Assembly: GCA_016432365.1 (NCBI GenBank)
Contig: CP066686.1
Coordinates: 128,355 to 192,354, forward strand
Origin: Candidatus Woesebacteria bacterium
Lineage (GTDB): Bacteria; Patescibacteriota; Microgenomatia; UBA8517
Length of the DNA: 64,000 bases
Direction: 5' to 3'
Each line of letters opens with the position of its first letter. The stretch's first letter is position 1. The notes beneath the pieces are model-generated. The model was given only the letters and a program-made list of their open reading frames with translations, did no database searches and was not told where the DNA came from. This document shows positions 14,057 to 33,452 of the stretch, in pieces. The translations under genes and the position numbers were made by a program.

Positions 14057-14169
14057 CCAATTAGTATAACAAAGTCTAAAACTTTCAAATTTTTCTGGCT
14101 CCCCCTAGCATACAACCTTCGAGACTGGTTTTACAAAAACAGTCTATTAATTAATTTTCAATTAAGAAC

Positions 14170-14457
14170 CTAAAGTTCAAGAAAATAAACAGGAGCAAAA
14201 GCGATAAGTCCGGCTATAAATTGAAGTACTAGTACCAGAAGCGCCAACTTGGGTTTCTGCGGCAACCACTTGATCGCAAAGAATAAGATAATCGGCAACT
14301 GACCACCCATAAGTAATTGAAAAATGTGAGCGGCCATTCCTTCGTCTTCACTTCGCACAATTCCAAAAATTGCCAACCAAACCAAGGTAAATATTAAAGC
14401 AGTAGCAGACATTGCGATCGGAAGCCAAGCACTTGTTTTACTTAACAAGCTTTTCAT
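14170..14457 (-). CDS. small membrane protein
   Basis: Three TM helices; a leaderless TGATATACT promoter lies at 14458-14475. Confidence 0.4.
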   Translation of the reverse strand: MKSLLSKTSAWLPIAMSATALIFTLVWLAIFGIVRSEDEGMAAHIFQLLMGGQLPIILFFAIKWLPQKPKLALLVLVLQFIAGLIAFAPVYFLEL

Positions 14458-14644
14458 ATCTGAAGTATATCAAAGCAAGTTCTAACTTCGTATGCAATGC
14501 TCCCCAGCTCTGAAATCATAATAACCCCAATCAGCAAAATAATAAAGGATTTTTGGGACACTGTTCAGGTGGAGTTGATTAGGGTTAGGTGTGAGGAAAT
14601 AATGAAATTACAAACCCAAAAACCACCTTGGGATGCCCAGTTTA

Positions 14645-15289
14645 TCAAATAACAATTGGGTTTTTCAAAAATTCGGCCGGCTTAAACTTCACATTGCACT
14701 TTTTGTTTACAAGAACTTTAAATCTTAAGGTTGTTTGAGGTAACTTAATCTTTCTCATACCTTCTATAACTTCTTCCAGATCCTCTAATGGCAAATCATG
14801 GAGTGCTGCTTTTATCTCAGTATTTGCCTCTAGGGTCATTACCGCTGATATTTCTGTTAGGTCAAACACATTGTCGGGAACAAAGTAAAAGCCCGCTGCA
14901 AAGAAATCGCTTTCCAAAGCGACCACAAAAGGCAAAGAATTGTAGATGGGATCTGACTTACAGAGAGACAAAAACTGATTTCTTGCTGATACAAGTACCT
15001 CACGCGTTTTTCTGACCCCATCGGAAGTGAAAGCTCCTTTATTCCTAGTTGCCAGTTCTGGATCGAGTGTCGATATATGATACCGTCCTGAATCCAACGT
15101 TCCTGCACTTGCTATAAATTTACACTCACAAACAAACTTTTTTGGTCCTTTATTGACTAAATAGTCGGGCTTCCGGATGGTTCTATCTCTGTCTAGTTTA
15201 CTTACACCAAGGCCGTATTTTTTAAATATACCACCAATTCTTTTTTCAAAGTTCCCTCCTATTTCTTGAGCCAAGCGATTGTCCAACAT
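14645..15289 (-). CDS. hypothetical protein with PD-(D/E)xK-like nuclease motif
   Basis: RKPDYLVNKGPKKFVCECKF reads as a PD…E-x-K motif; start trimmed to avoid overlap with the upstream gene. Confidence 0.4.
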   Translation of the reverse strand: MLDNRLAQEIGGNFEKRIGGIFKKYGLGVSKLDRDRTIRKPDYLVNKGPKKFVCECKFIASAGTLDSGRYHISTLDPELATRNKGAFTSDGVRKTREVLVSARNQFLSLCKSDPIYNSLPFVVALESDFFAAGFYFVPDNVFDLTEISAVMTLEANTEIKAALHDLPLEDLEEVIEGMRKIKLPQTTLRFKVLVNKKCNVKFKPAEFLKNPIVI

Positions 15290-15885
15290 CAAGATAAAAC
15301 CCGGAAAACAGTTATGATTAATAACATTATTCCAATTAACCAAAACGTCCCCTGCATAATTAGATGGACGAGGTTTGATTCGCTTTCATTTTCCATATCG
15401 ATAATCTCAGTTTCTTTTTTAATTGACTCGTATTCATTCAGATATTGAGATATCTTACTGGGAGTTGGTGTACTTGGCCAAAATGAAACCGAGGCCCATT
15501 GTTTTAGCTTTTTGTCTTGATTCTTAAGCCACCGCTTAAAAAATTTATACTCTGATGCCATGTGTAAAAGGCCAGATACAAGTGAGGAAAATAGAAAAAT
15601 TAATGACAGTTCAAGCAACAAGCTATCACTTTTGTCCAATTTCTGTCGAACCTCATCCACCGTAGAGAACGAAAAAATAATTGGCACCAAAAGTGTGGCA
15701 AAACCAAAAAAGTATTTATTCAAGTCGGATACTACTTTGTTTCCCGCAAGGAAAGCTTCAACCTGCGATTGCTTAATATCACTTTTATTACCCACCCTCA
15801 ATTGTTCTAATCCCTGGCAAACTTCTAATAAATAAGTATTGTCGTTTCTTAGCGTTTTTATAACCTCGTCATCCATAAACTTCAA
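15289..15885 (-). CDS. membrane protein, hypothetical
   Basis: Several hydrophobic helices. Confidence 0.4.
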   Translation of the reverse strand: MKFMDDEVIKTLRNDNTYLLEVCQGLEQLRVGNKSDIKQSQVEAFLAGNKVVSDLNKYFFGFATLLVPIIFSFSTVDEVRQKLDKSDSLLLELSLIFLFSSLVSGLLHMASEYKFFKRWLKNQDKKLKQWASVSFWPSTPTPSKISQYLNEYESIKKETEIIDMENESESNLVHLIMQGTFWLIGIMLLIITVFRVLS

Positions 15886-15925
15886 AATTTAGGCAGGAAA
15901 TTACGTTCTAATAAAACCTGGCTGG

Positions 15926-16209
15926 CTCCCCGGGCTGGATTCGAACCAGCGACCTTAATCTTACTCGCTCCCCCACATTTCTGTGGGACGCGGAACTATA
16001 TCTTGCACCGTTTTGTAAAAAAGCAAACGAGGTGTCTGGGTACATAGTTTCTGAACCTTCCAAGTACCATAAGATGCCTGGCTCGGCTGCGGGTTACCTC
16101 GTCTTTTTGACAGGGGCTTCACGCAATTCTCCCAATTTTCATCTCGATGTTTCCATCGAGAGCTGCTAAGAAATCACAGGATTCCGCTCTACCGCTGAGC
16201 TACCGGGGA
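15926..16209 (-). tRNA. tRNA-Asn(GUU) interrupted by a group I intron in the anticodon loop
   Basis: 5' exon is the reverse complement of 16176-16209: TCCCCGGTAGCTCAGCGGTAGAGCGGAATCCTGT. 3' exon is the reverse complement of 15926-15963: TAAGATTAAGGTCGCTGGTTCGAATCCAGCCCGGGGAG. Acceptor is a perfect 7 bp; D arm GCTC/GAGC; T arm GCTGG-TTCGAAT-CCAGC; the spliced anticodon loop is CUGUUAA. CCA is encoded at 15923-15925. Confidence 0.7.
15964..16175 (-). mobile_element. group I self-splicing intron, ORF-less, ~212 nt
   Basis: Conserved core elements present in order: P-like AATTGCGTGAAGCC, Q-like AACCCGCAGCCGAGCC, R-like GGTTCAGAAACTATG, S-like GCAAGATATAGTTCCG. 5' splice follows a U, with GCAG available as internal guide; omega-G precedes the 3' exon. 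Confidence 0.7.
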
Positions 16210-16227: not shown

Positions 16228-16238
16228 ATTATATCAAA
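16228..16238 (-). promoter_or_regulatory. extended -10 promoter (TTTGATATAAT) for the intron-containing tRNA
   Basis: The reverse complement of 16228-16238 is TTTGATATAAT, about 12 nt upstream of the tRNA 5' end. Its TG element is also the TGA stop codon of the HNH gene. Confidence 0.45.
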
Positions 16239-16572
16239 TTACACGCTTAACCGGAAGGTTAATCAATCCTCCGTGAATTTCCCGATGGCAATTTGCACAA
16301 ACCAAAATACATTTATTAATTTCTTCCTTAATTTTTTCCCAACTTCTGGTTAATCCCCTTGTAGACAAATTAAAGCTTTTATTCTTTTCGTCTAGATGGT
16401 GGAAATCCAAAGCGCCAATATATCTATCATAACCACAAATCTGGCATTTTCCTCCCTTGAGTTCAACTCCTAACGATTTCAGTCTTCTTCTTCTTTTAGA
16501 TACTGCGAGAACCAAATAGTGAGCTCTGTCTTTATATGTTCTAGTCTCTTTCCTTCGGGTTTTGTTGGGCAT
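16234..16572 (-). CDS. HNH endonuclease (free-standing homing-endonuclease-like)
   Basis: CQICGYDRYIGALDFHHLDEKNKSFN…CANCHREIH gives a CxxC…HH…CxxCH HNH motif; ATG at 16572 (an upstream TTG at 16581 is also possible). Confidence 0.75.
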   Translation of the reverse strand: MPNKTRRKETRTYKDRAHYLVLAVSKRRRRLKSLGVELKGGKCQICGYDRYIGALDFHHLDEKNKSFNLSTRGLTRSWEKIKEEINKCILVCANCHREIHGGLINLPVKRVI

Positions 16573-16602
16573 AACTAACAATAATCTCGAGAGGACTGGA
16601 TG

Positions 16603-17274
16603 TCAAGAAGTTAAACAATTATTTAGGTATTGTCCGCATAGTCCGGGCGTACGGGCGATTACAAAAACCGCCTTGCCGGGTTTGGGGTCCCAACCAAAAG
16701 CGCAGAGGATTGCAGCAATTGCTCCGTCAATATTTACAGGCAGCACTTTACCCTTTTGCTCCAATAGTTCTCTTGCAATTTCTTGGGCCAAATTTATATA
16801 TTCATCTGAGATTCCTTCATCTTTTGCAAGTTTGAAAAGAAGTTGACTTCTGGGGTCTACTTCGTAAATCCTGTGCCCAAATCCAGGTATTCTGTTCCCT
16901 TGCCTCAATTGTTCCTGCACTAAATTTTTAATATTTAATTTTTGATTTTTAATTTTGTACAGTAACCCCATTGCCGGTTCTATCGCCCCCCCGTGTGTAT
17001 CGTTTATTTGTAAAATCCCGGAAGCCACCGACTCGCTAATAGTCTTTCCTTCCTTTGCTGCCCTAATCGTTTCCGTAGCCGATGGGGTTTCTTCTCCATG
17101 ATCTATGGAAATATTGAGGATTGTTTCGAAAACTTTGCCCTGATGAATATCAGGGGCTTTCCCTGACAAGAGCTCAAAAATCATTTGAGAAAAACTTCTT
17201 TCAGGAGCAGTTTCAAGAAGCGATTCCTCTCCAAAATATGGCAAGTCGTTTTTATGTTGTATTGTCTTAGCCAT
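16603..17274 (-). CDS. citrate-synthase-family C-terminal catalytic domain protein (citryl-CoA lyase-like)
   Basis: Citrate synthase signature GFGHRIYEVDPR; DHGEETPSATETIRAAKEG…THGGAIEPAMG aligns with the His-containing catalytic segment; the N-terminal large domain is absent (223 aa). Confidence 0.65.
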   Translation of the reverse strand: MAKTIQHKNDLPYFGEESLLETAPERSFSQMIFELLSGKAPDIHQGKVFETILNISIDHGEETPSATETIRAAKEGKTISESVASGILQINDTHGGAIEPAMGLLYKIKNQKLNIKNLVQEQLRQGNRIPGFGHRIYEVDPRSQLLFKLAKDEGISDEYINLAQEIARELLEQKGKVLPVNIDGAIAAILCAFGWDPKPGKAVFVIARTPGLCGQYLNNCLTS

Positions 17275-17287
17275 ATTTGTAGTTTGC

Positions 17288-18187
17288 TTATTTGCTTATT
17301 TGCTTATTTAGCAACGTCGGTATTTCATCAAAATTCTCGGCAACCAAAATTCCGGCTTCTTTCAAAATCTTTCTTTTTTCGGAAGGAAGACCGCGCTTCC
17401 CTTCTATTATAGCTCCCGCATGACCGAATTGAACATCGCTTGGTAAACCTGTCGTGAATTCCCCCGCAATGTAGGCTACAACCGGTTTTTTGATTTTCCC
17501 TTTCCTTACATATTCCGCAATTTTTTCTTCATACTTCCCTCCAAGTTCTCCAAAAATTACCGAGGCTTTCGTATCCTTATCTTGTTCTAATTCCATTAAA
17601 AAGTCCGTAAAGTCGGTACATATTATTCTGTCTCCACCAATGCCCACAGCCCAGGAAACACCCATTCCGTTGTTTTTAAGAATTGAACCAAGCTCGGAAG
17701 TCATTCCGCCGGACTTGGATATAACTCCTATATTTCCCGCAACAAAAACCCTCTCCGGTGTTCCTCCACCGATTTGACCAAGTTTGATTTTGTTCTTGGG
17801 AGAAATAATCCCTACCGAACTTGGACCGATTATTGTTACTCTTTTTTTCTTGGCAAGCGCAAACATTTCAGCAGCATCCTTTGTAGGTACTTTTTCGGCA
17901 CCGATTAATATGAATTTTATTCCGGCATCGATCGCCTCAATAACCGCCCCTTTGGTAAATAGGGGCGGAACAAACTGTACGGTTCCGTCAACCTTTCCGA
18001 CTTTTTTCAGCGCCTCTTTTACACTGTTGAATATCGGCACTCCTTGTACTTCCTGCCCACCTTTACCCGGAGTTACTCCGGCCACGATCTTTGTTCCATA
18101 ACCCAGCATGTGCGCCAAAGAAGTTGAACCTTCCGCTCCTGTTAAACCTTGTCCTATAAATTTAGAGTTACTTTTTGGTAGATGCAT
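17288..18187 (-). CDS. succinyl-CoA synthetase alpha-like subunit (CoA-binding; GHAGA phosphohistidine loop)
   Basis: IGQGLTGAEGSTSLAHMLGYGTKIVAGVTPGKGG and QFGHAGAIIEG; start trimmed to MHLPKSN (ATG at 18187). Confidence 0.75.
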   Translation of the reverse strand: MHLPKSNSKFIGQGLTGAEGSTSLAHMLGYGTKIVAGVTPGKGGQEVQGVPIFNSVKEALKKVGKVDGTVQFVPPLFTKGAVIEAIDAGIKFILIGAEKVPTKDAAEMFALAKKKRVTIIGPSSVGIISPKNKIKLGQIGGGTPERVFVAGNIGVISKSGGMTSELGSILKNNGMGVSWAVGIGGDRIICTDFTDFLMELEQDKDTKASVIFGELGGKYEEKIAEYVRKGKIKKPVVAYIAGEFTTGLPSDVQFGHAGAIIEGKRGLPSEKRKILKEAGILVAENFDEIPTLLNKQISK

Positions 18188-19316
18188 ATTTTTTTGCCAA
18201 ACGGGACATAATTTTAGCCGATTCGGCGATTGATGTCTTTTCTCCATAAAGATGTAAATCAAAATCTTTAACTTTTTTAAGCATGTCAAAAGCTTCTTTG
18301 TCGTGTGGCCCTCCCCGGCGTATAACTACTGGGTAATCCGGTTTGGGATTCATCTTTCTCAATGATTCTATAAACCCGGTAAGTGTCTCAAAGATGTTGG
18401 TAAAGTTGGCAATAGCCCCAACCACCCAAAGACCATTTATTCCTTTTTTAGATAGCACAATCTTGGTGAGTTTTGCCACTTTTTCTTTTGAAGGATTGCC
18501 GGAATATTCAGTATAATTTGCAGGGGCCCCACCCGCTTTGACCAATGCGTCCATCGCAGTTAATGATGCTCCTCCGCCTGAGGCAAGAACCGCAATGTCC
18601 CCAGGTAAATCAAAATAAGTTGAACCGGCAGTTCCCCTATAATCACCCTCATCGATTTTCTTGGCGGCAATTTCCCTTCTTGTTGGACTGCGACCTGGAA
18701 TGGACCTGGGTGAATAAGTCCATTCTTTATGGCGTCCAATAGCTGAATCGTCCAACTTAACCTTAGCATCAAGCGCATAGACATTTCCTTTTTCATCAAT
18801 AACCAAGGGATTAATTTCCAGTAGCAACAAGTCGTTATCCAAGAACGACTTGATTAATTTAGGTAATATTTTTTGAATTTTCCCAGGTAGCGCAACTTTT
18901 GTTTTTTTGGGGTTAAGGGTGTCTAGGGGAACAATTTTCGATTCCCTTGTCTCAATTCCGGTTCCTCCCGATTCTGAAAATGTTAAGACAGGACCGCGAC
19001 TTCCTGTGTCATATGACAATGCCAAATAGAATTCGCGTCTGTGTTTGATTATTTCTTCTGCAAGTATTTCTGTAACAACTTCTCCGTTTATTTTTTTGCC
19101 CAAAAGTTTTTTAACCTTAGATTTGAATTCTTCCTTTTTGTTTACAAAAATAATTCCACCGGCATCTTTTCTCTTACCGGAAAGGACCTGAGCTTTAAGA
19201 ACCATCGGGAATTTAATTCTGACCTTATTTGTAGCCGAATCCACAATCTGAAACGGGGGAACTTTTATACCTTTATCCGAAAGAAGTTTCTTACCTTCAA
19301 ATTCGTATAGAATCAT
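18168..19316 (-). CDS. succinyl-CoA synthetase beta-like ATP-grasp subunit
   Basis: SucC/AclB-like ATP-grasp N-terminus (MILYEFEGKKLLSDKGIKVP…) with a C-terminal ligase-CoA domain. Confidence 0.7.
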   Translation of the reverse strand: MILYEFEGKKLLSDKGIKVPPFQIVDSATNKVRIKFPMVLKAQVLSGKRKDAGGIIFVNKKEEFKSKVKKLLGKKINGEVVTEILAEEIIKHRREFYLALSYDTGSRGPVLTFSESGGTGIETRESKIVPLDTLNPKKTKVALPGKIQKILPKLIKSFLDNDLLLLEINPLVIDEKGNVYALDAKVKLDDSAIGRHKEWTYSPRSIPGRSPTRREIAAKKIDEGDYRGTAGSTYFDLPGDIAVLASGGGASLTAMDALVKAGGAPANYTEYSGNPSKEKVAKLTKIVLSKKGINGLWVVGAIANFTNIFETLTGFIESLRKMNPKPDYPVVIRRGGPHDKEAFDMLKKVKDFDLHLYGEKTSIAESAKIMSRLAKKYASTKK

Positions 19317-27273: not shown

Positions 27274-27358
27274 GGAGGATATGCCGAGCGGCTAAGGCAA
27301 AGGTTTGCTAAACCTTGACCACGCAAGTGGTCGGTGGGTTCGACTCCCTCATCCTCCG
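27274..27358 (+). tRNA. tRNA-Ser(GCU)
   Basis: GGAGGATATGCCGAGCGGCTAAGGCAAAGGTTTGCTAAACCTT…long variable arm…GGTTCGACTCCCTCATCCTCCG. Promoter CTGATATAATACGCTT sits directly upstream. Confidence 0.8.
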
Positions 27359-27522
27359 CTCGTCAGAGTTAGACCTTTACGCTTCGTTTCTGCGTAGCAG
27401 AAACTTTGCTATTTTTGGTCTACTCTTCCTCTCAAAATTGCTTTGCAATTTTGGAAGAAGAAACGGCAAAGCGGAAAGCAAAAGCGATAGCGATCTGCGA
27501 ACAGTATAGGAAATTTCGACGA

Positions 27523-27607
27523 GGAGAGGTCGCATAGCGGTCTAGTGCAGCGGTTTACTAAACCGCCGTATCGCAAGATACCGAGAGTTCGAATCTCTCC
27601 CTCTCCG
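27523..27607 (+). tRNA. class II (long variable arm) tRNA with apparent ACU anticodon; identity uncertain
   Basis: GGAGAGGTCGCATAGCGGTCTAGTGCAGCGGTTTACTAAACCGC…CCGAGAGTTCGAATCTCTCCCTCTCCG. Acceptor, D, T and variable arms fold well. Anticodon stem is GCGGT/ACCGC and the loop TTACTAA places ACT at positions 34-36; discriminator is G. Confidence 0.5.
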
Positions 27608-27633
27608 CACTGATATAATTGATTGTCCAACGA

Positions 27634-33026: not shown

Positions 33027-33390
33027 GGGGACGATCGGTTTCGACGAGAGCTCTTTAACAAAACTGCAAGCGGACTTTTATCTGTAGTCCTTAAAAATGG
33101 GTTAAAAAACTAAAGCTAAATCTTACGATTCAGCTCCCCGTTTCCAGATGGCATTCGCCTAAGGAATGGGTGTCCTTTAATTTGATTCTCGACCGAATTA
33201 GATGGGCATAAACCTGTTCGAGATGCTGTATAAATCTTATGATTTAGAGATTTATAAATAAGCCAATTACATCTTACCTTGAAATTTCTTGTTGATTAGA
33301 TAAGTTCAAGGGAAATTAAAAAATCAAATAAGCTTGTAGATGTTTTGTTTTAATGTTTTTCGGACGCGGGTTCGATTCCCGCCGTCTCCA
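33027..33390 (+). ncRNA. ssrA: tmRNA (SsrA)
   Basis: 5' GGGGACGATCGGTTTCGACG pairs with 3' CGTCTCCA. T arm is GGACGCGGGTTCGATTCCCGC. A candidate tag ORF reads …GCTAAATCTTACGATTCAGCTCCCCGTTTCCAGATGGCATTCGCCTAA (…MAFA*). Sits downstream of smpB. Confidence 0.8.
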
Positions 33391-33452
33391 CTCACATTCG
33401 TCGTTGCGCCATCGGTAATCGATAGTGCTCGGGTACTTCGTGTTTTGCACAC

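Follow-up and report, generated by a model that had tools for sequence, protein, structure and literature searches.

What is a small nuclease gene doing directly against a tRNA gene that is itself interrupted by an intron? The question arises in a 64,000-nucleotide (nt) stretch of contig CP066686.1 from a Candidatus Woesebacteria bacterium (positions 128,355 to 192,354; hereafter, the window), where a 684-bp cassette on the minus strand (16606-15923) holds an HNH promoter, an HNH gene, a tRNA promoter, and a tRNA-Asn gene split by a group I intron. An earlier reading made from the letters alone (the sequence-only reading) had likened this arrangement to collaborative homing, which has been described for phages (PMC3984707, PMC2790892). 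After comparison with relatives in Patescibacteria and phages, we consider it probable that the HNH gene encodes a free-standing homing endonuclease of a family dedicated to tRNA-Asn, co-mobilized with its partner intron by collaborative homing as one 684-bp cassette. Throughout, WIN denotes the locus in the window, and L001, L108, and so on are labels of compared loci.

The split tRNA-Asn gene and its intron

Standard annotation overlooks this tRNA: default ARAGORN missed the intron-split gene, and Rfam at its gathering score missed both the tRNA and the intron. With introns allowed, ARAGORN reported a split tRNA at 15923-16209, and the Rfam model RF00028, whose gathering score is 50, matched the window with 46.9 bits (local E 1.3e-10) and L009 with 67.5 bits. 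The label that ARAGORN gave, Thr(agt), was rejected, since it follows from an arbitrarily chosen junction. We instead assign the tRNA as Asn(GUU), with the intron at 16175-15964, because of the U.G pair in P1 (CUGU/GCAG), the omega-G at 15964, the discriminator G73, and the intronless allele L108. In that syntenic allele, the intron is missing precisely, with an exon junction corresponding to window 16176/15963. Ligation of the exons yields CUGUUAA, together with G73 and an encoded CCA, and ARAGORN calls the intronless orthologues tRNA-Asn(gtt). The intron-split gene is the sole tRNA-Asn(GUU) gene found in the window, where neither a second tRNA-Asn nor a tRNA-Asn remnant was found.

An alignment of 15 introns lacking an open reading frame (ORF) showed invariant CTGT, GCAGC, AATT, AGACTA, GATATAGTCC, and G/TAA. 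From these 15 homologues, RNAalifold recovered the anticodon stem, P1 with its invariant U.G, P2, P3, P4, P5, P8, and P9, with compensatory changes in 29 out of 43 pairs. The conserved core, the P1 U.G pair, and the 3'-terminal G point to a genuine group I intron, which may be self-splicing, and the covariation and the precise absence in L108 bear out the ORF-less group I intron proposed in the sequence-only reading. P10 (CUUA/UAAG) is found in WIN and L001, but the ORF-less introns as a group do not share it, and it was rejected as a general element.

Anatomy and promoters of the cassette

The HNH gene lies outside the intron, as the sequence-only reading had it (Table 1). The ORF listing places the gene at 16234..16581 on the minus strand with a TTG start, but the conserved start codon is the ATG at 16572, which gives 112 amino acids (aa). 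This ATG begins 5 nt after TATTGT, the -10 element of a sigma-70-type promoter dedicated to the HNH gene. The geometry TTGACA-17-TAnnnT-5-ATG/GTG is kept in all eight of the clade members compared, and the sequence further upstream is unrelated. The short distance from the -10 element to the ATG suggests that the HNH mRNA is probably leaderless. Upstream, the TGA stop (16605-16603) of the citryl-CoA lyase gene (ccl) falls within the -35 hexamer TTGACA of the HNH promoter.

At its other end, the HNH gene stops 24 nt before the 5' end of the tRNA (16209), and its TGA supplies the TG of the extended -10 promoter of the tRNA; on both points the letters had been read correctly. The motif TGNTATAAT occurs 17 times in the window compared with 2.45 expected (100 shuffles, none of which reached 17), and four out of 17 copies sit 9-18 nt 5' of tRNA genes (16228, 23334, 27256, and 27611). 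Based on this enrichment and on the copies 5' of tRNAs, we interpret the motif as the promoter type of the organism, with no chance match involved, which suggests that its promoters rely on extended -10 elements. Further copies are found, for example, at 706, 4585, 9079, and 12072, and the enrichment is ~7-fold. The leader between promoter and tRNA is presumably removed by RNase P. A palindrome in the HNH ORF tail, TTAACCTTCCGGTTAA, is unconserved in L001 and L008 and was hence left uninterpreted.

Table 1. Positions of the cassette features in the window, in the order in which they are read.
Feature	Position	Strand	Details
HNH gene promoter	16578..16606	-	-35 TTGACA 16606-16601, 17-nt spacer, -10 TATTGT 16583-16578; consensus scan
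HNH endonuclease ORF, 112 aa	16234..16572	-	ATG 16572, TGA 16236-16234; protein MPNKTRRKETRTY...CANCHREIHGGLINLPVKRVI
ORF 3' tail AACCTTCCGGTTAAGCGTGTAATTTGA	16234..16260	-	protein ..NLPVKRVI(stop); homologous to the guide-sequence/P2 (T-Q-L-P) coding stretch of intron-encoded relatives
tRNA extended -10 promoter TGATATAAT	16228..16236	-	its TGA is the HNH stop codon
Predicted pre-tRNA leader CCAGACGTTCATTGATAA	16210..16227	-	CAGnCGTTC.. conserved in HNH+ and HNH- alleles
tRNA-Asn 5' exon, 34 nt	16176..16209	-	ends ..CUGU; U35 is the 5' splice-site U; boundary confirmed by L108
ORF-less group I intron, 212 nt	15964..16175	-	between tRNA nt 35 and 36
Intron P10 CUUA	16170-16167	-	
Intron guide sequence GCAG	16166-16163	-	
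Intron P2	16162-16142	-	
Intron J3/4-P4	16129-16120	-	
Intron J6/7-P7 CAGAAACUAU	16053-16044	-	
Intron J8/7 AAGAUAUAGUU	16004-15994	-	
Intron P9	15988-15971	-	
Intron omega-G	15964	-	
tRNA-Asn 3' exon UAAGAUUA...	15923..15963	-	discriminator G73, encoded CCA

The HNH protein

Across 30 aligned sequences, C43xxC46, H58H59, and C92xxC95H96 do not vary, in agreement with the motif noted from the letters, and the protein has a basic N-terminal helix followed by a zinc-bound beta-beta-alpha-metal core. The protein matched PHROG 2255, 'HNH endonuclease' (E 2e-30), and scored 20.1 bits against Pfam HNH (PF01844), slightly below the cut-off of 21.4; an NCBIfam search gave no match. An AlphaFold2 model (predicted local distance difference test score 87) shows the strand-strand-helix elements and is matched best in Foldseek by HNH nucleases, namely Cap5, the Gme HNH nickase, T5 SciA, T4 endonuclease VII, and the HNH of Cas9, with none of the 42 matches reaching E<=0.001. 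A sequence profile search of the PDB returned only McrA (E 0.024) and the En domain of LtrA, both weak. Together, these features place the protein in the HNH / His-Me finger nuclease superfamily, whose core carries a catalytic His, Asn/Asp, and His; in this protein, two CxxC pairs of zinc ligands frame it. The kinship with I-HmuI that the sequence-only reading had raised was not borne out, as I-HmuI was neither among the 42 Foldseek matches nor in the PDB profile results. A protein search returned 1478 homologues, mostly from Patescibacteria. Between members of the HNH clade of the window, nonsynonymous divergence (dN) is 0.09-0.30 and synonymous divergence (dS) is saturated, from which we conclude that the ORF is under purifying selection.

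Presence, absence, and linkage in the window clade

Eleven loci (WIN, L001, L002, L004, L008, and L081-L086) share one fixed architecture of HNH promoter, 111-112-aa ORF, the overlap 'TGA TATAAT', a conserved 17-18-nt leader, and tRNA-Asn with an ORF-less intron. All 11 HNH-bearing loci thus carry the intron. A metagenome scan for the spliced junction yielded 22 intronless alleles with the same exon sequences as HNH-bearing loci, and none of them has the HNH gene (0/22). These 22 alleles share the promoter and leader TTTG[A/G/C]TATAAT-CAGnCGTTC... Cleavage aside, the two counts agree with the collaborative arrangement first suspected from the letters. One HNH-less allele, L108, keeps a ~27-nt stub homologous to the HNH 3' end, which could be either a deletion remnant or ancestral promoter-upstream sequence into which the ORF reads.

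We sampled relatives through the flanking ccl gene, and because the sample was drawn in this way, it is independent of HNH and intron state. Over ccsB-ccsA-ccl, the nearest relatives are L118 (87% nt identity) and L119 and L120 (84%). These three have the order rpoD-ccsB-ccsA-ccl-92 nt-tRNA-Asn, with a tRNA that is intronless, HNH-less, and of a different sequence type. L121 and L122 show the same synteny, also without intron and without HNH, and L108 and L121 are syntenic on both sides. The HNH gene is therefore polymorphic for presence and absence at one conserved site among related genomes, and its absence from the nearest syntenic relatives is consistent with the proposal in the sequence-only reading that the cassette is mobile or recently acquired.

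The borders of the cassette are visible in the comparisons. Its left junction lies in the last two to three ccl codons, where relatives read ..LN[V/S/N]SK(stop) and the window reads ..LNNCLTS(stop), and WIN and L001 are homologous only across the cassette (16574-15925) and in rpoD. For the proteins flanking L081, no counterparts were found in HNH-less loci. The window tRNA differs from that of its nearest relatives at six out of 72 nt and from that of distant lineages, whose flanks are 68% identical, at 2-3 nt, which suggests that the tRNA came with the cassette or was converted by it.

Within the cassette, the modules evolve out of step. WIN and L081 are 80.5% identical in the ORF, 95-97% in the exons, and 60% in the intron, and WIN and L001 are 77% identical in the ORF and 86% in the intron. 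The WIN/L001 intron is an outlier: compared with sister lineages, it is 57-60% identical, as against 74-80% for the ORFs. No lineage was identified as donor of the WIN/L001 intron, so an intron swap and fast divergence are indistinguishable in this lineage.

We also note that, relative to the syntenic L108, the window holds ~1.86 kb of extra sequence directly after the tRNA-Asn 3' end (14057-15922, minus strand). It contains three ORFs without Pfam assignment, for a 198-aa membrane-like protein and proteins of 232 and 95 aa. Serine-recombinase islands occupy the same position in L085/L086 and L119/L120, and given these islands in relatives, the site looks like an integration hot spot.

A nuclease family at home in tRNA-Asn

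A scan of one genome per species, mostly Patescibacteria, recovered at least 526 HNH loci. The best 80 were kept for arrangement counts and classified by ARAGORN with introns allowed, with three loci resolved manually. In 79 out of 80, the HNH gene lies inside or within ~125 nt of a tRNA-Asn gene. It is inside the tRNA intron on the same strand in 58 loci. In 12 loci, it directly precedes a tRNA with an intron, which is the arrangement of the window; in five, it directly precedes an intronless tRNA-Asn, and in four, it lies directly downstream of the tRNA. The remaining locus is at a contig start. The tRNA exons at the 79 loci read ...CTGT / (G)TAA..., that is, tRNA-Asn(GUU) with the same insertion site. 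The home of the family is thus the tRNA-Asn gene, with most members encoded in the intron and the HNH of the window clade just outside it.

Intron-encoded members carry the ORF in the P1 loop, where the 5' splice site is followed by ~30-40 nt with the promoter-like TGGTATACT and then by the ATG. The guide GCAGC is read in frame, its CAG coding for the Gln of the motif G-I/V-T-Q-L-P, and in 55 out of 57 intron-encoded genes it lies at a constant 38 nt past the first Cys codon of CxxCH. P2, J2/3, and P3 fall within or directly after the ORF, and its last codons encode the guide sequence, P2, and P3. In free-standing HNHs, K, E, N, or D replaces the guide-coding Gln, and the window reads G-L-I-N-L-P.

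Seven intron-encoded HNH loci (L027, L037, L038, L045, L048, L063, and L067) come from metagenome-assembled genomes (MAGs) with labels outside Patescibacteria: Omnitrophota (two independent MAGs), Aerophobetes, Acidobacteria, Methylomirabilota, Heliobacteriaceae, and Burkholderiales. Either the element reaches beyond Patescibacteria, or the contigs were binned wrongly.

The different arrangements are interspersed in phylogeny. In a neighbor-joining (NJ) tree of the protein, free-standing and intron-encoded HNHs are mixed; the NJ trees were built on 104 aa or 211 nt and are indicative only. L007, of the upstream type, is sister to L005 and L006, of the inside type, and the tRNAs of all three are identical. 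L070 likewise groups with L062, and L050 with L023. In some lineages, vestiges reveal which way the change went. Upstream of the HNH gene of L056 (2250-2792) are a degenerate 5' exon and the start of a P1 loop, and downstream of the gene are an intact intronless tRNA-Asn and, after it, a partial second copy that starts exactly at the spliced junction CTGTTAA. L020 (4300-4370) and L016 (2130-2280) consist of a resident tRNA, the HNH gene, a degenerate intron core, and a vestigial 3' exon end, 'ACCCGCGGAGC'. These vestiges imply that L056, L016, and L020 derive from intron-containing arrangements. In L016, the vestigial 3' exon mismatches the resident tRNA and is of a foreign tRNA-Asn type, and the HNH segment therefore would have arrived horizontally. 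The HNH genes within the introns of L012, L069, and L078 are truncated (pseudogenized). No vestigial 5' exon was found upstream of the window HNH (score 12, compared with a null 95th percentile of 16). An apparent vestige in L055 lies within a coding region and is probably a chance match, and a 'CTCCTGT' vestige in L007 is suggestive in position and statistically not significant; neither was retained.

The states seen include an ORF in the P1 loop with dual coding, an ORF just upstream or downstream of the tRNA with an intron, an ORF beside an intronless tRNA, and the loss of both elements. We lean, by a small degree, towards viewing the window locus as a snapshot of a natural series in which one HNH family and one tRNA-Asn group I intron have repeatedly changed their physical relationship, a series that would span more than 500 species genomes as well as phage tRNA clusters.

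Relatives in phage tRNA clusters

By tblastn, HNH homologues were found in 477 phage records. Nine phage loci that we inspected represent eight lineages, and all lie in or adjoin tRNA gene clusters. In four of the eight lineages, the HNH gene is directly beside a tRNA-Asn(GTT): Vibrio VH1_2019, Klebsiella Muenster/phiKp_21, Aeromonas LAh_6, and Synechococcus S-WAM2 (L087 1201-1572; L088 759-1452; L091 850-1252; L094 1070-1388, respectively). In the crAss-like DAC15, a T5-like phage, the FelixO1-like wV8, and the Prevotella megaphage Lak-B6, the HNH gene is beside no annotated or ARAGORN-called tRNA-Asn. The HNH ORF of VH1_2019 and the tRNAs of LAh_6 are unannotated. In Lak-B6, the sequence directly 5' of the HNH homologue (L092 721-936) was proposed by ARAGORN to hold a tRNA with an insertion of 141 nt.

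How the cassette may move, and competing explanations

Under the collaborative homing that we favor, a 684-bp selfish cassette would have taken the place of the native tRNA-Asn gene in a Woesebacteria genome. The nuclease would cut or nick tRNA-Asn alleles that lack the intron, at its insertion site or close to it, and repair from the cassette would copy the intron into the cut allele. The nuclease gene would be copied along (collaborative or trans homing), as it would lie only ~60-400 bp from the break. The intron, by splitting the target, would make the carrier immune, and self-splicing would keep the essential tRNA functional.

Several observations weigh against this mechanism. Apparently intact HNH genes sit beside an intact intronless tRNA-Asn at six Patescibacteria loci (L010, L016, L033, L053, L056, and L073) and in four unrelated phages, a KVP40-like Vibrio phage, the cyanophage S-WAM2, the Klebsiella jumbo phage Muenster, and Aeromonas LAh_6. 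Either the intron is unneeded for immunity there, or the target is elsewhere. The sequence-only reading had named such neighbors as the evidence that would count against it; they do occur in these lineages, and they are absent from the exon type of the window clade. The anticodon stem beside the insertion site also varies widely among carriers. At 112 aa and without a recognizable extra DNA-binding domain, the protein has no obvious means of recognizing a long specific site. In the window, the anticodon-stem pair is still that of the relatives and the remainder of the tRNA is of the foreign type, whereas a break in the anticodon would, in the simplest case, be expected to produce a co-conversion gradient running the other way. 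Lastly, the counts of 11/11 and 0/22 come from searches that were not aimed at HNH-minus, intron-plus alleles in the window clade.

The HNH genes beside intronless tRNA-Asn are the main counter-evidence, and they form the basis of the explanation that comes second in our ranking, although we regard it as unlikely: the HNH homes at the tRNA-Asn locus, with a target in the T-arm, the D-arm, or flanking DNA, and the intron is a tightly linked but independent passenger. Such a target would resemble that of SegB, which recognizes the conserved T-psi-C motif of tRNA genes (PMC2330249), and it would suit an intron that, between WIN and L081, is far more divergent than ORF and exons. It does not account for the perfect co-occurrence of HNH and intron in the window clade, nor for the embedding of the ORF in the intron at 58 out of 80 loci, which is expected if the cut site is the insertion site. 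We find it more doubtful still that the HNH no longer homes, being domesticated or a decaying relic of an intron-encoded gene that is kept for a host or intron function such as splicing help, maintenance of the tRNA locus, or defense. Strong purifying selection, the conserved private promoter, and an arrangement that is stable across at least nine lineages are all compatible with such a role, and the vestiges in L056, L016, and L020 indicate that free-standing copies can derive from intron-encoded ones. However, the polymorphism between close relatives and the foreign type of the window tRNA point to recent movement, the catalytic and zinc residues are intact, and the family is also found beside intronless tRNAs. 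HNH proteins are not known to serve as group I maturases. That a generic restriction- or defense-type HNH adjoins the tRNA by chance would agree with some database names of homologues ('McrA' or 'predicted HNH restriction endonuclease') and with the weak PDB match to McrA, but with 79 out of 80 homologous loci at tRNA-Asn and a conserved overlap of stop codon and promoter, this explanation is extremely improbable and is effectively refuted by the comparative data.

Implications

If the view of a natural series is correct, the locus would be the first cellular, non-phage case of collaborative homing, and the family would provide a direct record of the assembly and disassembly of a mobile intron via relocation of a 34-nt 5' exon. 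The union of endonuclease and intron has so far been argued from two phage examples. Here, natural intermediates number in the hundreds at a single locus that is tiny and alignable, and vestigial exons reveal the direction of some transitions. The data point to an element that is widespread in Patescibacteria and seemingly undescribed in the literature that we searched. In the intron-encoded form, a nuclease ORF that overlaps the guide sequence of a ribozyme is an unusually tight case of dual coding for protein and RNA. There is also a consequence for annotation: since default ARAGORN and Rfam gathering thresholds miss the tRNA, such genomes would be scored as lacking tRNA-Asn. Finally, through the HNH family, elements in the chromosomes of ultra-small bacteria are tied to the free-standing nucleases found in phage tRNA clusters.

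Other features of the window

The genes upstream of the cassette (16603-19316, minus strand) form a citryl-CoA synthetase-like operon (ATP-grasp/Citrate_bind and CoA-ligase subunits) with citryl-CoA lyase, downstream of rpoD. Many Woesebacteria/Microgenomates share this operon (475 ccl homologues at E<=1e-40), a noteworthy part of central carbon metabolism to find in a Patescibacteria genome. Elsewhere in the window, five tRNA-Ser genes (gga, cga, gct, act, and tga) lie within 4.5 kb. Among them, a tRNA-Ser with anticodon ACU (loop TTACTAA; 27523-27608, plus strand) is found 160 nt downstream of tRNA-Ser(GCU) (27274-27359, plus strand); A34 outside tRNA-Arg(ACG) is unusual in bacteria. A tmRNA gene at 33027-33393 (plus strand) scored 140 bits with Rfam, with a poor alignment in its central part, and the tag predicted by ARAGORN, GHKPVRDAV(stop), is without the usual ...ALAA-type ending.

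Comparison with known systems

In our literature search, we did not find an HNH gene described in or beside a tRNA-Asn group I intron. Williams 2020 (bioRxiv 10.1101/2020.01.27.920355) distinguishes 21 tRNA/intron classes; the terms 'Asn', 'HNH', and 'endonuclease' are absent from its searchable text, in which the class table is an image. As far as that text describes them, these introns resemble the one in the window in being small group I introns in the anticodon loop with a U-1 wobble pair and an omega-G. Among bacterial tRNA introns with a nuclease, the cyanobacterial tRNA-fMet group I intron and its endonuclease I-Ssp6803I (I-SspI), as cited in PMC3984707, are similar to the window locus in linking a homing endonuclease to a group I intron in the anticodon loop. 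I-Ssp6803I is an intron-encoded PD-(D/E)XK enzyme, whereas here the nuclease is of the HNH type, the intron lies between nt 35 and 36 of tRNA-Asn, and the nuclease gene is outside the intron.

Free-standing homing endonucleases are known from phage tRNA clusters. T4 SegB, a GIY-YIG enzyme, cuts mainly within a tRNA-Asn gene, and a coupling of its expression to tRNA processing has been proposed; T5 F-TflI/II/IV likewise lie among phage tRNA genes (PMC2330249). Homologues of the window HNH occupy the same kind of setting, in the tRNA clusters of T5-like, FelixO1-like, and KVP40-like phages, jumbo phages, and cyanophages. In contrast to the window, the phage cases involve no intron, and SegB belongs to a different nuclease family. 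The likeness of the F-Tfl enzymes to the window protein is one of location in tRNA clusters.

The closest parallels are the collaborative pairs of phages, T-even mobE with the nrdB intron/I-TevIII and F-CphI with the psbA intron in cyanophage S-PM2 (PMC2790892, PMC3984707, PMC6083498). In these pairs, as in the window, a free-standing endonuclease gene adjoins a gene split by a group I intron that is ORF-less or has a defunct ORF, and endonuclease and intron are inherited together. The systems differ in that the host here is a cellular Patescibacteria chromosome, the split gene is a tRNA rather than a protein gene, and the target site here is putative. They differ further in that a single nuclease family occurs here both free-standing and intron-encoded at one locus, with vestiges that point to interconversion. 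For the phage pairs, the arrangement has been suggested to be an intermediate stage between the free-standing and the intron-encoded state of endonuclease genes, and the same may hold for the cassette in the window.

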